Assembly (NCBI GenBank): GCA_934086145.1
Contig: CAKOHV010000003.1
Location: 13,451-77,450, forward strand
From: an uncultured Bacilli bacterium
GTDB lineage: Bacteria > Bacillota_I > Bacilli_A > RF39 > UBA660
Direction of reading: 5' to 3'
Length of the DNA stretch: 64,000 nucleotides
A model generated the notes under the pieces. The model made no database searches. It worked only from the letters and a program-made list of their open reading frames with translations, and had not been told where the DNA came from. Positions 4,801 through 61,428 of the stretch are shown in pieces (the stretch's first letter is position 1; each line of letters opens with the position of its first letter). The position numbers and the translations under genes were made by a program.

Positions 4801-5811
4801 TTAATCTGTTTTTTTGCTGTACTCATCTTCGATATTACCAACGATTTCTTCAACGGCATCTTCGATAGTTAGAATGCCGATGAAAATATTTTTATCTGTA
4901 ATAATGGAGAAGGTTTCTTGATTTTCTTGCATGATGCGAAAGATATCATCGATTTTCTCATTCTTCTTAAAAATGCAAGTTTGGTGAATAATGTCTTTTA
5001 TTTGCAATTCTTTATTGTCTTGATGATAATATATAAAATCTTTAATATTGATAAAACCAAGAATATTTTCATCATCTAGGACAGGGAAACGAGTAAATTT
5101 AGAATTTTTAATCTTTCTTAGAACTTGTTGTTTAGTATCTTTGATATCAATATAGACGACTTTTTCACGAGGGGTCATTATTTTATTGGCGGTCTTGTTA
5201 TTGAAATTAAAAATATTTAAAATATATTCTTTTTCTTTTTCTTCGACAATACCTTGTTTAGACCCGGTAATTATTAACTTTTTGATATCTTTGGTAGTCA
5301 GAGTTTCTTCTCGTTCATGAATGTTTAAAAGGTTACAAATGAAGTTGGTCGAAAAGGTTAGTAAAATGATTAGAGGTTTACAAATAAAGGAAATGGCTGT
5401 TATTAGGTCGATTGTCAGATATGCTACTTTTTCTGGCTTAGAACGACCGATCTTTTTAGGAACTAGTTCGCCAAAAACTAAAGTTATATATGATAAGATG
5501 AGAGTTATGGTAATCATTAGAAAAGCTTTGGTAAAGCTATCACTGATAATGTAAACGCCATAAGATATCAAGTATTCGGTGAAAGTATCACTGGCAAAAG
5601 CCGAGGCCAGAAAACCGGCTAAGGTAATCCCAATTTGAATGGTTGATAAGAAGGTTGACTCATTAGCAATCATTTTTTCGATTCTTTTGGTCTTTTTGTT
5701 ACGTTTACGAGTTAAAGAATATTTATTTAAAGATAAGAAAGCTATTTCACTAGCAGATAGTATACCATTTATAAAAATTAAGATTAATAAGAAAAAGATT
5801 TTTATTATCAT
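4801..5811 (-). CDS. CNNM/DUF21 transmembrane domain plus CBS-pair protein (TlyC/hemolysin-family, putative divalent cation efflux)
   Basis: Four N-terminal TM helices with the LVFGELVPKKIG motif typical of DUF21, followed by a CBS pair. No CorC/HlyC C-terminal domain visible. Confidence 0.7.
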   Translation of the reverse strand: MIIKIFFLLILIFINGILSASEIAFLSLNKYSLTRKRNKKTKRIEKMIANESTFLSTIQIGITLAGFLASAFASDTFTEYLISYGVYIISDSFTKAFLMITITLILSYITLVFGELVPKKIGRSKPEKVAYLTIDLITAISFICKPLIILLTFSTNFICNLLNIHEREETLTTKDIKKLIITGSKQGIVEEKEKEYILNIFNFNNKTANKIMTPREKVVYIDIKDTKQQVLRKIKNSKFTRFPVLDDENILGFINIKDFIYYHQDNKELQIKDIIHQTCIFKKNEKIDDIFRIMQENQETFSIITDKNIFIGILTIEDAVEEIVGNIEDEYSKKTD

Positions 5812-5883: not shown

Positions 5884-6189
5884 ATGACAATTAAAGATAT
5901 TTTTAGATATTTAGTAGGAGCTTATTATGGAATGAGCGAAATGGATGAATATGATCTAAAAGAATTTGTTCTTAATGATATTGAACAATATATTAGAAGT
6001 TTCGTTCTTGAAAATAAGCAAACAACTGTTGATTATTTAGAAGAGGCTCTGGATGTAAAAGATAATGTTAGTTTAAAAGTTAAATTACAAGATTGTTTGC
6101 TGGTATTACCAAAGGTTGAAGCTCCGCTAGAATTAATTTTATTAGTAAAAAGGCGAATTAAAAATTTAAATGATGACGATGATTTTTAG
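5884..6189 (+). CDS. hypothetical acidic protein (101 aa)
   Basis: GGTGAT SD. No recognisable family. Ends in NDDDDF. No terminator before the downstream RNA promoter. Confidence 0.45.
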   Translation: MTIKDIFRYLVGAYYGMSEMDEYDLKEFVLNDIEQYIRSFVLENKQTTVDYLEEALDVKDNVSLKVKLQDCLLVLPKVEAPLELILLVKRRIKNLNDDDDF

Positions 6190-6242
6190 AAAATATCAAA
6201 AAAGCTATTGACTAATGAATAAAATAATGATATAGTTTAGAT

Positions 6243-6620
6243 ACTTAATAGTAAAGTAAGTTTCAAATATTTAGGATGGATATTTTATAGTTGTGTATAC
6301 TTTTATAATCTGTCTTTAGTCTTAATTATTGAACTTACATGGTTGCTGGGTGATGAACTAATAACAATCAATGTTAGATTTATCTTTCATTGGTTGGACC
6401 GTTTATTCCAGCAGGATATTACTGATGGGAATCGGTTAATTAATTTTAACTTTTCTTATCTATATAAAAGGTAATATTTTGATATCTTGTCGAGCTATTA
6501 GGTATGTACGTGTATGTGGCGTTTTGGCAAGAGGCTAGCAGCTACCTGTCAATGACTGTTAGTTTGAATAATATTAAGCCACGAAGAAGGTTATTGTTTG
6601 ACAGACAATAATTTTTTTTT
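6243..6620 (+). ncRNA. candidate structured ncRNA, unit A (~380 nt), family not recognised
   Basis: -35 TTGACT 6208-6213, 17-nt spacer, extended -10 TGaTATAGT 6228-6236. No credible ORF. Long-range helix GTAAGTT 6256-6262 / AACTTAC 6332-6338. Terminator TTATTGT 6591-6597 / ACAATAA 6605-6611 plus T9. Ends are predicted, not measured. Confidence 0.55.
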
Positions 6621-6692
6621 GCCTTTTTATAAATATAATAAATTTAGAAAAAAAGTCTTGACGTAGTATGAAAAAAATGGTATATTTAAGTT

Positions 6693-7018
6693 ACTTAATA
6701 GAGAGAGTGCTTGCTAGTAATTTTATTAGTACAAAAATACTATGATTACTAGTTAAAAGGCTCAGTGATACATGCCGATATGATAGTAACTGAAATTACT
6801 CTTATTGTCATATATCACTTTATAAACAAGGGATAATAATTAATATTATTCAAAATTATTGTTTATTAATGATAATATCTTGTCAAGCTATTAAGTATAT
6901 ACGTACATGTGACGCTATTGGCAAGAGGCTTATAATTATATCTGTCAATATGTTATAAGTTTAACAATGATTATGTCACGAAAAGGATTGTGGTTTTGAC
7001 AGGCTACAGTTTTTTTTT
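6693..7018 (+). ncRNA. candidate structured ncRNA, unit B (~325 nt), paralogue of unit A
   Basis: -35 TTGACG 6658-6663, 17-nt spacer, extended -10 TGgTATATT 6678-6686. Helix CTAGTAAT 6714-6721 / ATTACTAG 6745-6752. Terminator ATTGTGG 6987-6993 / CTACAGT 7004-7010 plus T8. No credible ORF. Confidence 0.55.
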
Positions 7019-7071
7019 GCCTTAATTTTATTAAATGAAAATACTATGATATAATAAAGATGGTGGTTTTT

Positions 7072-8187
7072 ATGAATGAAAAAGAGTTTAAAAATAAAAT
7101 TTTTTTAATTACTTATGGTGTTATCTTGTTTGTCTTATTGATGAATTATAAGTGGCTTTTTAGTGCTTTTAGTGTTCTTGCTAAGGTTTTAGCGCCTTTT
7201 GTTGTTGGAATTATCTTTGCGATGATTTTAAATGTTTTGGTTAATTTCTTAGAACAAGGACTATTAAAAAAAGTTAAGAAAAATAAACGATTACTTAGTG
7301 TATTGTTGTCGTTAGTGATGGTTTTTGGTTTTATAGCATTTTTGATTTTGATATTGATTCCACAAATCAAAAATGCTGGAGAGATTTTTGTTGATAATAT
7401 TCCGGAATATCAGAAAACTATTCATGATATTGGGAAGAGTTTAGGCTTTAGTAATGATGAATTGAAAGTTTTAGAACTAGAAAATACTAATTTAAAGAAA
7501 GAAATATCAGATTATTTAACAACTAATTATGGTCGTATTTTAAATTATTCAATGGGCTTTGCTTCTTCGGTTTTCTCGGTTGTTTGTAATTTCTTTGTCG
7601 GTTTAGTTTTTGCTATTTATTTATTGATGGGCAAAGAAACGTTGTTAAATCAATTTAAGAAGTTATTACAATGTATTATGAATGATAAAGTTTATACTAA
7701 GTTTTGTGAGGTGATGAGCCTTTCTAATGCGGTTTTTTCAAGCTTTATTAAGGTCCAATTTGTAGAAGCTTTTATTTTAGGAATTTTGTGTTTGCTAGGT
7801 ATGCTCTTATTTAGATTACCTTATGCAGCGACGATATCTGTCTTAGTAGGAGTAACGGCTTTAATTCCGGTATTTGGAGCCTTTATAGGGTGCGCGGTAG
7901 GAACTTTTTTGATTTTTATGATTAAGCCTATTAAAGCGGTGACTTTTATTATATTCTTCCTTGTTTTGCAACAAATTGAAGGAAATTTTATTTATCCGCG
8001 TGTCGTTGGAGGAAAGATTGGGTTACCAGGAATCTGGGTTTTAGTAGCTGTTACGATTGGTGGTTCAGTCGGCGGAATTCTAGGAATGTTACTTGGAGTG
8101 CCTGTTCTGTCAGTGGTGTATAGTTTGGTAAGAGTTTCAGTTAATAAGAAGGTTGCTAAGAAGAGTAAGAAAAAAGAAACCCAATAA
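7072..8187 (+). CDS. AI-2E (PerM/YdiK) family transporter
   Basis: Polytopic membrane protein with the family-typical C-terminal half (QQIEGNFIYPRVVG, GLPGIWVLVAV). ATG 7072 has a GGTGG SD at 7062-7066; ATG 7060 has none. Confidence 0.75.
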   Translation: MNEKEFKNKIFLITYGVILFVLLMNYKWLFSAFSVLAKVLAPFVVGIIFAMILNVLVNFLEQGLLKKVKKNKRLLSVLLSLVMVFGFIAFLILILIPQIKNAGEIFVDNIPEYQKTIHDIGKSLGFSNDELKVLELENTNLKKEISDYLTTNYGRILNYSMGFASSVFSVVCNFFVGLVFAIYLLMGKETLLNQFKKLLQCIMNDKVYTKFCEVMSLSNAVFSSFIKVQFVEAFILGILCLLGMLLFRLPYAATISVLVGVTALIPVFGAFIGCAVGTFLIFMIKPIKAVTFIIFFLVLQQIEGNFIYPRVVGGKIGLPGIWVLVAVTIGGSVGGILGMLLGVPVLSVVYSLVRVSVNKKVAKKSKKKETQ

Positions 8188-28294: not shown

Positions 28295-28882
28295 ATGGAT
28301 ATGATTCTTGAAGTGGCAAACACAGGCAGTTTTAACTATATAATATTTGCTATAATAATAGTTTTAATGATTATATCTATGCTAGTAGTATATAGTTTAT
28401 ATATGCAAAATAAACAATTAATAGATGAATTAAAGAAAAAAAATAATGAGATAAATGAAGATAATTTTAAAGAGTTAGTAAAAGAGGATAAACAAGTTGT
28501 TCCTGATTTTTATAAACCTAGTGAAGAAAATATTGAAAAAAGCAATCAGGAAATGGTTGATTTACAAAGTATTACAAAAGATTTAGAAAGTAAACAAAAT
28601 GAAAAAAATATTGATTTTACACCTTATGAAGAAGAACAAGAAGAAAGAGCTATCATAAGTTATGATGAACTAGTTGAAGCAAGTAAAAATGTTAGTATTA
28701 ATTATTCTGAAGAAAAAAATATTGATGATGTTTTAATTAAAAAAGTTGATTTAGATAATACGGGAAAAATTGAACTTGATCCAATCAAAAAGGAACTTAA
28801 TAGTAAGGTTGAAATAATCAGTTATGAGCATGAAGAAGCCTTCTTAAAAGCTTTAAAACAATTACAATCTTTATTAAATTAA
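28295..28882 (+). CDS. single-pass membrane protein with a charged coiled-coil-like C-terminal region
   Basis: GGTGAAGGTGA precedes ATG 28295 and ATG 28301, so the start is uncertain (the track gives TTG 28226). TM helix IIFAIIIVLMIISMLVVYSLY. Confidence 0.5.
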   Translation: MDMILEVANTGSFNYIIFAIIIVLMIISMLVVYSLYMQNKQLIDELKKKNNEINEDNFKELVKEDKQVVPDFYKPSEENIEKSNQEMVDLQSITKDLESKQNEKNIDFTPYEEEQEERAIISYDELVEASKNVSINYSEEKNIDDVLIKKVDLDNTGKIELDPIKKELNSKVEIISYEHEEAFLKALKQLQSLLN

Positions 28883-28892
28883 TGGTGATAAA

Positions 28893-29618
28893 ATGGCAAA
28901 CAAAAGGGAAAAGTATTATTTATTTGAATATGATATGGGCTTTTTAAGTTTTCTGTCAATAGTAATTTTAATTTTCTTGATTTTAGCGATTGGTTTTTTT
29001 GATAAGTGGTCAATCTTTAAAAATATTTTAGTTGCTGCTGATCAAAAGACAGGAGATTTTGAATTTATCTTTTTAGTAATTTTAATGTTTTTGTGGGTCT
29101 TCTTACACGAGGTTATTCATGGTTTAATGTATTTAGTAAATGGCGCCAAGAAAAAAAGTTTATCTTTTGGAATTGCTTTAGAAAAAGGGATTTTGTATTG
29201 TTTATGTAAGGAATACATTAGTAAAAAGAATATTTTAATTTCGGCGATATCTCCTTTCTTCTTAATTGGTGTTTTAACAAGTATCTTAGGCTTTGTCTTT
29301 AATAATTCTTACTTAGTTATTTTATCAATAATGAACATGAGTAGTAGTATTGCGGATATAATATTAGTCTTATTTTTATGGAAATTGCCTGCCAATATTG
29401 AGTTCTGTGAATATGATAATTCAACGGGATTTATAATAAAGACAACTGAAGATATTAAGGATATTTCTGGAATTGGCTTAAAATTTGTAAAAGTTATGGA
29501 TGATGATAAAGAATTATCGTTTGATAAATATAAGACATTTTATATAAGTAAAGTAAGTCGATATGTTGCTTTAGTCTTTCTTATTGTAATTATTTTGGCT
29601 ATCTTAAAAAGATTTTAA
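28893..29618 (+). CDS. DUF3267-like putative membrane zincin metallopeptidase
   Basis: GGTGA SD. Polytopic, with HExxH (LHEVIHGLMY) at the end of a TM segment. Confidence 0.5.
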   Translation: MANKREKYYLFEYDMGFLSFLSIVILIFLILAIGFFDKWSIFKNILVAADQKTGDFEFIFLVILMFLWVFLHEVIHGLMYLVNGAKKKSLSFGIALEKGILYCLCKEYISKKNILISAISPFFLIGVLTSILGFVFNNSYLVILSIMNMSSSIADIILVLFLWKLPANIEFCEYDNSTGFIIKTTEDIKDISGIGLKFVKVMDDDKELSFDKYKTFYISKVSRYVALVFLIVIILAILKRF

Positions 29619-60830: not shown

Positions 60831-61109
60831 ATGGGGACGTTAGTTGTTAATGAGGGAATGTCTTTTAATATAATGGTTGGTGAAGCTTTTAAAAATTGTG
60901 AAGTATTAGGCGTTTTTAAGGATACTAAAAATAACAAAAAATATATCATATATACTGATTATGAAAAAGATAAGTATGATAATTATCCTATATATGGGGC
61001 ATTAATCGAAAAAGATGGTGATCATTATAAGATAATGGATATTGATAATGAAAAGGTGATTAAAGTTATGAATGCTGTTCTTTCTAAAAGTACGGATGCT
61101 TTAAGATAG
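60831..61109 (+). CDS. DUF1292-family small protein
   Basis: GGTGG SD. About 90 aa with a family-like core (CEVLGVFKD...KKYIIYTD ... YGALIEKDGDHYKIMDID). Confidence 0.5.
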   Translation: MGTLVVNEGMSFNIMVGEAFKNCEVLGVFKDTKNNKKYIIYTDYEKDKYDNYPIYGALIEKDGDHYKIMDIDNEKVIKVMNAVLSKSTDALR

Positions 61110-61212
61110 GGACTTTTTAGCCGGTAATATTTTGGTTGTTGTGATTAATAAAGAGAAGGTATAAGTAAGTATTTAAAATTAATTCTTACTAAAAAATAAG
61201 TTATAAAAAATT

Positions 61213-61234
61213 AAGTCAACGTTGTTGACTTTTT
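61213..61234 (+). terminator. intrinsic terminator
   Basis: AAGTCAAC / GTTGACTT 8-bp stem with a 3-nt loop, then TTTTATTT. Confidence 0.6.
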
Positions 61235-61428
61235 ATTTGGAAAAAGGGTGGCTTGATCGCCTATATGGTCTAATTTTATCTTAGCTTTTGTAATTTTTGA
61301 CATTTTAGATTAAAATGTTAAAATATGAATTAATGTGAGGTGTGAGAAAGTGGCAAATCCAAATAGTAGTAAGTATAACTACATATTTTGAGGTAAGGAA
61401 TAAGAAAATTTGCTAATAGAGGTTTGAT

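Follow-up and report, generated by a model that had tools for sequence, protein, structure and literature searches.

Large and intricate bacterial RNAs without an assigned role are rare, and such RNAs, including OLE, raiA/ModT, ROOL, GOLLD and the IscB guide RNA, have repeatedly led to new biochemistry. Here we consider a 64-kb stretch of DNA (hereafter the window) on a contig from an uncultured gut member of the Bacilli (RF39), in which two adjacent units on the + strand, A and B, are proposed to represent a stand-alone, highly structured non-coding RNA (ncRNA) family of ~330-570 nt that matches no family in Rfam 15, a reading to which we assign a probability of roughly three in four. RF39-type gut bacteria have reduced genomes and have never been grown, and a strongly promoted RNA of 330-570 nt that is retained in such genomes is probably important. 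The novelty would lie in the RNA family and its fold, and not in a demonstrated new mechanism.

The nearest analogues of this RNA appear to be OLE and raiA/ModT. OLE (RF01071) resembles it in being a large, ornate and stand-alone ncRNA of anaerobic Bacillota that is present in RF39-type reduced genomes, and it shows a genomic association with OapA, a four-helix, CNNM-like membrane protein that lacks CBS domains (PMC11332333). In contrast to OLE, the RNA described here is shorter, with ~155 nt conserved, none of its five sequence types matches the OLE model, and no oapA-like gene adjoins it (no OapA-specific model was applied), the nearby CNNM protein being one with CBS domains. raiA/ModT (RF03072) invites comparison as a trans-acting and stable RNA of Bacillota with its own promoter and two pseudoknots, some examples of which have an intrinsic terminator (PMC11706538). 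However, raiA is conserved over its whole length and in more than 2,500 species, whereas the RNA described here has a hypervariable middle and a narrow range.

Complementary, covarying loops like those reported below are also found in RNAs that are phage-associated or phage-encoded (ROOL, GOLLD and the phi29 prohead RNA), whereas the locus considered here is chromosomal and syntenic. In the phi29 prohead RNA, as in ROOL and GOLLD, such loops pair between molecules and form rings or cages. The RNA-RNA contacts of OLE involve kissing and palindromic loops, and loop and palindrome pairings in OLE, ROOL and GOLLD alike have proved to be intermolecular (PMC12286853).

Two predicted tandem transcription units

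Units A and B lie in an interval of 870 bp (6190-7059) without any open reading frame (ORF) of at least 100 aa, which is the longest such stretch in the window, the runner-up being 607 bp. An earlier note on this DNA had described the interval as the longest non-coding stretch, and for ORFs of this length the description is borne out. Each unit is preceded by an A-tract, a -35 element and, after a spacer of 17 nt, an extended -10 element (Table 1), and the two promoters are the top two + strand sites in a promoter scan, both being predicted to be strong and of the sigma-A type. The -35, spacer, extended -10, hairpin-arm and 5'-end positions given in the earlier note can all be read in the sequence. 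These include the shared 5' end CTTAATAG at 6244-6251 and 6694-6701, although its true extent is 9 nt (ACTTAATAG, from 6243 and 6693), beginning 7 nt past the -10 element. This promoter placement should set the start of transcription at the A of ACUUAAUAG.

The start of each unit was taken from its promoter and its end from the U9 run. The hairpin and T run previously noted at the end of each unit are present, with nine T residues in both cases, whereas the GCC said to follow them is unconserved and reads GCT or GGC in homologues. A simple consensus terminator scan returned no site at either unit end, because the stems are AU-rich and contain only 1-3 G-C pairs; nevertheless, the terminator hairpins of A and B are conserved and covary across homologues.

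Similarity between A and B is confined to the promoter, the 9-nt 5' end and the 3'-terminal ~145 nt. Identity between the two units is 76% in this 3' module (shuffles 52 +/- 2%) and 75% over the promoter and 5' end (shuffles 56 +/- 3%), whereas in the middle it is 52% and equal to that of shuffles (52%). Judged by these identities, the duplication is far beyond chance and units A and B are paralogous genes, in agreement with the earlier suggestion that a whole transcription unit was duplicated, its ends being kept and its middle left free to diverge.

Homologues and ancestral state

Relatives were collected via contigs encoding the flanking proteins, and about six further lineages of uncultured gut Bacilli proved to carry homologues at the syntenic position in the chromosome. 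They comprise five sequence types of 326-571 nt, three of which are single-copy. The A + B arrangement (378 + 326 nt) recurs in the same species in many human gut metagenomes, where the region is nearly identical, and a related pair (A' + B', 385 + 348 nt) is present in a sister species, in which the AI-2E permease encoded downstream is 89% identical, and in three metagenome contigs. Part of one B-type unit occurs on a contig with a 78% identical permease. Type C is a single unit of 526-528 nt in lineages with permeases of 69% and 64% identity, type D is a single unit of 571 nt that was reached via homologues of a 101-aa upstream protein (62% identity), and type E is a single unit of 492 nt in an NCBI metagenome-assembled genome named Candidatus Coprovivens sp. 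Candidatus Coprovivens corresponds to GTDB UBA11963, of the order RF39 and family CAG-1000 (PMC8035907). All five types share the same layout of A-tract, TTGAC, 17 nt, TATAnT and 6 nt, followed by ACTTAATAG. Ancestrally the RNA was present as a single copy, and the duplication took place in the lineage of the window.

A metagenome scan recovered three true loci (L012, L015, L018), all from the sister species, and six further matches that we regard as chance, lying in GC-rich or simple-repeat DNA. The strict A/B pattern used for scanning the genome collection cannot capture types C-E. It does fit both units of the window, yet neither was found among 185,579 species-representative genomes; that set may lack the window species and its sister, or include them in a form broken at the RNA locus. 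L001, the sole match to the strict pattern in the genome collection, was rejected as a chance occurrence inside a gammaproteobacterial coding region. Distant loci that encode homologues of the flanking proteins (L008, L028-L034) gave no match to the covariance model or to the hallmark motifs. Within the window the covariance model finds no further copy, and an apparent third one (ACTTAATAG at 28795, CTGTCAAT at 28953) is a chance occurrence inside coding genes. The core strings are absent from 200 supplementary files of a survey of structured RNAs in the human microbiome (PMC8040213), files that leave it unsettled whether the RNA is listed in that survey.

Two of the variable domains contain repeated short motifs. 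That of type D (L026:7471-7895) has four hairpins with different stems and an identical 7-nt loop, UCAAAAG, which occurs 4 times in the domain (P about 0.02 against shuffles), and a fifth UCAAAA lies in a D-specific 5-nt insertion beside the self-complementary core described below; the repeats look like a repeated binding site. In type C, AUUUUCU is found four times, with less clear conservation.

Predicted fold and covariation

The conserved ends of the RNA are predicted to fold together into a core with two pseudoknots (Table 1). In each of the five types the minimum-energy fold is closed by P1, in which the 5' end pairs with the 3' module, and all five are more stable than shuffled sequence (z = -4 to -8; for units A and B the shuffles preserved dinucleotides). 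Since the 5' strand of Pa ends one nucleotide before the 3' strand of P1, these helices would form an H-type pseudoknot, the entire first loop of which is the variable domain (~175-425 nt); this domain is well folded in every type, yet cannot be aligned between types. Pb crosses Pa and gives the second pseudoknot. The loop of the Pd hairpin is complementary to that of the terminator, and among the unpaired positions of the core GUACGU and CACGA are invariant. It is unusual for the extreme 5' end to join the 3' module in a pseudoknot that houses a fast-evolving domain of several hundred nucleotides in its first loop, as it is for a terminator loop to double as a pairing partner. The pairing of the 5' end with the 3' module, the pseudoknotted core, the pairing between terminator loop and internal hairpin loop, and the single-copy ancestor had all been overlooked in the earlier note.

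Table 1 Positions of units A and B, the elements of their predicted fold and the adjoining genes (window coordinates)
Feature	Position	Strand	Remarks
Unit A promoter	6200..6236	+	A-tract; -35 TTGACT 6208-6213; 17-nt spacer; extended -10 TGaTATAGT 6228-6236
Unit B promoter	6650..6686	+	A-tract; -35 TTGACG 6658-6663; 17-nt spacer; extended -10 TGgTATATT 6678-6686
Unit A, predicted RNA	6243..6620	+	378 nt; promoter, U9 end; minimum free energy (MFE) z = -6.1
Unit B, predicted RNA	6693..7018	+	326 nt; promoter, U9 end; MFE z = -4.0
A: P1 5' strand	6243..6251	+	ACUUAAUAG; pairs with 6495-6503
A: variable domain	6252..6484	+	three long arms, each a hairpin; not detectably similar to unit B
A: hairpin arms in variable domain	6256-6262 / 6332-6338	+	GTAAGTT / AACTTAC
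A: Pa 5' strand	6485..6493	+	UCUUGUCGA; pairs with 6524-6532
A: P1 3' strand	6495..6503	+	CUAUUAGGU; pairs with 6243-6251
A: self-complementary core	6506..6513	+	GUACGUGU; GUACGUAC in types C, D, E
A: Pb 5' strand	6516..6520	+	GUGGC; pairs with 6578-6582; second pseudoknot
A: Pa 3' strand	6524..6532	+	UUGGCAAGA; pairs with 6485-6493
A: Pd hairpin	6533..6564	+	stem 6533-6541 / 6556-6564; loop motif CUGUCAA 6546-6552
A: Pb 3' strand	6578..6582	+	GCCAC; pairs with 6516-6520
A: purine tract	6583-6590	+	faces U tail 6612-6620
A: terminator stem	6591-6596 / 6606-6611	+	followed by U9 tail (T9) 6612-6620
A: terminator loop motif	6598-6604	+	UUGACAG; complementary to Pd loop 6546-6552
B: P1	6693-6701 / 6888-6896	+	
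B: hairpin arms	6714-6721 / 6745-6752	+	CTAGTAAT / ATTACTAG
B: Pa	6878-6886 / 6918-6926	+	
B: self-complementary core	6899-6906	+	
B: Pb	6909-6913 / 6975-6979	+	
B: Pd	6927-6935 / 6953-6961	+	
B: loop motifs	6942-6948 and 6996-7002	+	
B: purine tract	6980-6987	+	
B: terminator stem	6988-6993 / 7004-7009	+	
B: U9 tail (T9)	7010-7018	+	
CNNM + CBS membrane protein gene	4801..5811	-	~430 bp upstream of unit A
101-aa acidic protein gene	5884..6189	+	adjoins the RNA in types A, B, C, E
AI-2E family permease gene	7072-8187	+	true start 7072; own extended -10 TGATATAAT 7047-7055

Two alignments bear on this fold. In the first, 15 modules were aligned to a covariance model, and 99.5% of cells are paired with 13 pairs compensated, as against 41-55% and 0-3 in slid controls. 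The second comprises ten distinct cores, types D and E included, in which 98.9% are paired and 14 pairs have changed on both sides (slid controls 22-44% and 0-4): five in Pa, two in Pb, six in Pd and one in the loop-loop pairing, plus one wobble. For example, in type E the UCUUGUCAA/UUGRCRAGA of Pa is replaced by UCAUUGA/UCAAUGA, Pb occurs as GUGGC/GCCAC, GUGAC/GUCAC and GUGGA/UCCAC, and the loop-loop pairing CUGUCAA/UUGACAG becomes UCGUCAA/UUGACGG in type D, with an exchange of U-A for C-G. Compensation in Pd affects 6 of the 7 outer pairs counted, and its loop is invariant outside type D. P1 consists of nine pairs, eight of them invariant and one changing from U-A to U.G. The purine tract changes only between A and G, as pairing with the U tail at the 3' end would predict.

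Read on the opposite strand, the numerous U.G pairs would become A.C mismatches, and the RNA strand is accordingly the + strand. Between close relatives the middle differs by 1-nt indels, and the middle domain is therefore not protein-coding; no ORF is conserved. As to whether homologues would diverge in a helix-like or a codon-like manner, a check proposed in the earlier note, the pattern is helix-like, with 1-nt indels, tolerance of G.U and the 14 compensated pairs of the second alignment. Taken together, these comparisons indicate that the RNA is probably functional, with a fold kept by compensating mutations in related species.

Several points tell against this interpretation. P1 rests on conservation and one wobble, without covariation, and the alignments draw on ~7 related lineages with few independent substitution events. 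The shuffle control overstates significance for related sequences, the helix segments of the second alignment were hand-picked, and the 3' strand of Pd was taken to be whichever 7-mer paired best, a choice that works in favour of the model. Moreover, the start, end and abundance of the RNA are all inferred from sequence, no partner protein has been identified, and the known range is narrow, being a clade of low-GC gut Bacilli that includes Candidatus Coprovivens.

Sibling small RNAs such as OmrA/OmrB show the same layout, namely tandem genes in which every unit has a promoter and a terminator to itself and a divergent middle lies between conserved ends. OmrA and OmrB are ~85 nt long and Hfq-dependent, with a seed that is largely unstructured, whereas the RNAs described here have 4-6 times that length, and pairing between their conserved ends gives a pseudoknotted core. 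A and B could be viewed as sibling base-pairing regulators, similar to OmrA/OmrB or to a large regulator with many hairpins such as staphylococcal RNAIII, whose variable domains or conserved loops would pair with mRNAs while the 3' module stabilises the transcript; terminator loops can serve regulation (PMC11979758). We consider this explanation unlikely. The two conserved loops are complementary and covary, which argues for pairing of loop with loop rather than with an mRNA target common to both units, the 3' module contains the complement of the conserved 5' end, and a double-pseudoknot core of ~145 nt far exceeds the needs of a stability element; no mRNA target was found, although no search was aimed at one.

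How such an ncRNA might work can be outlined. Because both of its ends are buried in helices, the RNA is probably long-lived and abundant, as housekeeping RNAs are, and it would act in trans. The conserved core would most likely be a platform for folding and recognition that binds either a partner protein, itself conserved, or further molecules of the RNA, while the fast-evolving middle would display lineage-specific hairpins. At ~155 nt the core is small enough for probing, crystallography and cryo-EM.

Binding to other copies is brought to mind by the self-complementary core, 8 nt long, that lies between P1 and Pb. Where A-type relatives have G in place of A (GUGCGUGU), self-pairing of this core persists as G.U, and in type B (AUACGUAC) the inner 6 nt alone are self-complementary. 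No stable lone hairpin can be formed by these 8 nt, because neighbouring bases in one chain cannot pair. The presence of complementary loops on one molecule together with this core suggests self-association, and we tentatively raise the possibility, which we regard as considerably less probable than the existence of the family itself, that the RNA is a self-assembling unit held together by GUACGUAC and/or by 6-7-bp pairing of the complementary loops between molecules. Assembly of this kind would produce dimers, or head-to-tail chains or rings, in which A and B, having identical interfaces, could co-assemble and show two different variable domains. Sequence alone cannot tell loop pairing within a molecule from that between molecules.

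Pa resembles the loop-loop pairing in the manner of an internal repeat (CUUGUCAA compared with CUGUCAA, and UUGRCRAG with UUGACAG), and their strands could therefore cross-pair in types A-D, though not in type E. The UUGACA within the loop motif is also the sequence of a -35 hexamer. Three other elements were considered and dropped: a small hairpin between P1 and Pb (UAUGU-ACGU-ACAUG), which has mismatches in B and D and is reduced to 2 bp in E; a hairpin UUGAUA/UGUCAA, an alternative to Pa in type A that is unconserved in types C-E; and a k-turn after Pb, considered by eye, the G-A dinucleotides of which are unconserved.

Comparison with known RNA families and mobile elements

All 4227 models of Rfam 15 were searched at the gathering threshold over the window, and the search was repeated at E<=10, under relaxed filters, for types A/B, C, D and E. 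At the gathering score A and B have no match in a search of the whole window, which returned a T-box leader alone (RF00230, 50400-50602 on the + strand, 123.9 bits, full length), and nothing overlaps the RNA in ten related loci. At E<=10 no consistent family emerged in any type: one match in the A/B region was judged to be chance, and the weak matches obtained (NBR2, snoRNAs, miRNAs, SR1 antisense, a CRISPR repeat) differ from type to type and are likewise ascribed to chance. There was no match at this level, in any type, to OLE, raiA, ROOL, 6S RNA, RNase P, signal recognition particle (SRP) RNA, transfer-messenger RNA (tmRNA) or a riboswitch, so that the failure of the earlier note to recognise a known family is upheld. 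ARAGORN detected neither a tRNA nor a tmRNA in the window. The fold, a multi-arm domain with a pseudoknotted core, is unlike the single rod of 6S RNA, and conserved RNase P sequences such as GAGGAAAGUCC are absent from the A/B region.

It could still be argued that A and B are a very divergent form of a known large RNA (OLE 'variant 2', raiA/ModT, 6S, RNase P, SRP or tmRNA), which we judge to be the least probable of the explanations considered here. Shortened OLE variants have been reported in RF39, 'variant 2' as a common form there, and OapA is a distant CNNM-domain relative (PMC11332333), and a CNNM + CBS gene does lie upstream of unit A. However, it was with the OLE covariance model that the published variants were identified, and they retain the nucleotides conserved in OLE (PMC11332333), the search at E<=10 matched none of these RNAs, the CNNM gene is absent at the type D locus, and its CBS domains, in our reading, bring the protein closer to MpfA, a CNNM-domain transporter, than to OapA. 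Furthermore, a tandem pair with unrelated middles is not the arrangement expected of a housekeeping RNA, which would be single-copy.

It is also highly improbable that the RNA is a ribozyme with the double-pseudoknot core as its active site, whether its substrate is itself or another RNA. The core is compact and pseudoknotted and has invariant unpaired positions (GUACGU and CACGA, as above), but it matches no known family and has no evident substrate or cleavage site. Group I and II intron cores and a hepatitis delta virus (HDV)-like fold were rejected, as their helix order and conserved sequences do not appear to fit and Rfam gave no match; for the HDV-like fold it is the helix order that is at odds. 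Large conserved bacterial RNAs with folds of this sort have often been suspected to be ribozymes (PMC11706538).

We found no gene for a reverse transcriptase, Cas protein, IscB/TnpB or recombinase within ~10 kb of the RNA, according to Pfam matches in the window and at the loci of its relatives, as the earlier note had also observed for its surroundings. Scans of phage genomes and plasmids, and two scans of viral contigs, gave no true match, those in plasmids being short, AT-rich chance matches. The RNA locus is chromosomal, with stable synteny.

Genomic context

In types A/B and C the RNA immediately precedes the AI-2E gene in the same orientation, and a terminator closes each unit, an arrangement that invites the alternative explanation of a cis-acting leader or riboswitch, tandem in the window, that regulates read-through into the AI-2E gene at the U run. 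Tandem riboswitches and T-boxes are similar as structured units with intrinsic terminators upstream of a transporter gene, and riboswitches do occur in tandem (PMC12452182). We nonetheless regard a leader as very improbable. Each unit has its own promoter, so that a full promoter follows the terminator of unit A, and the downstream genes have an extended -10 of their own between terminator and gene. The next gene itself varies, being AI-2E in A/B and C, a VanZ-like gene in E and a convergent SDF transporter gene in D, where no AI-2E gene is nearby. No conserved antiterminator or other element competing with the terminator stem was seen, the conserved fold includes the terminator loop, and a unit of 330-570 nt with an unconserved middle is unlike any aptamer.

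The 101-aa protein encoded immediately upstream belongs to no Pfam or NCBIfam family. It is modelled as a five-helix bundle (pLDDT 94.8), for which no fold match in the PDB and no RNA-binding fold were found. A protein search returned 135 homologues, and all eight of the contigs examined were of low-GC gut metagenome origin; elsewhere its neighbours vary, and include pheT, or an rRNA methyltransferase with a pseudouridine synthase. As a partner of the RNA this protein was rejected, being acidic and lacking an RNA-binding fold, with homologues at L028-L034 that have no copy of the RNA within 5-10 kb.

Types A, B, C and E have the CNNM + CBS gene two genes off, in the opposite orientation, and the type D locus lacks it. 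The RNA is found within a conserved ion-transport block that includes ZIP, cation-diffusion facilitator and CNNM + CBS genes (1263-2896 on the + strand and 4801-5811 on the - strand). OLE has been linked in the literature to a CNNM-like partner and to Mg2+ homeostasis, a parallel that may be a coincidence.

A few further observations were made in the window and at related loci. After a 92-aa ORF (60831-61109), the window has ~320 bp of non-coding DNA (61110-61428) with no Rfam match, in which a GTCAACGTTGTTGAC hairpin is followed by a T run. The PGK RNA motif (RF03040) scores just over threshold at L029:4624-4721 (-) and L030:4626-4722 (-), where, in a more distant relative, it sits in a gap of ~700 bp upstream of the 96-aa homologue. 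Finally, a related gut bacterium (L008:4088-5014) encodes a ribosomal protein S2 with a match to the Rho_N domain, an unusual fusion.

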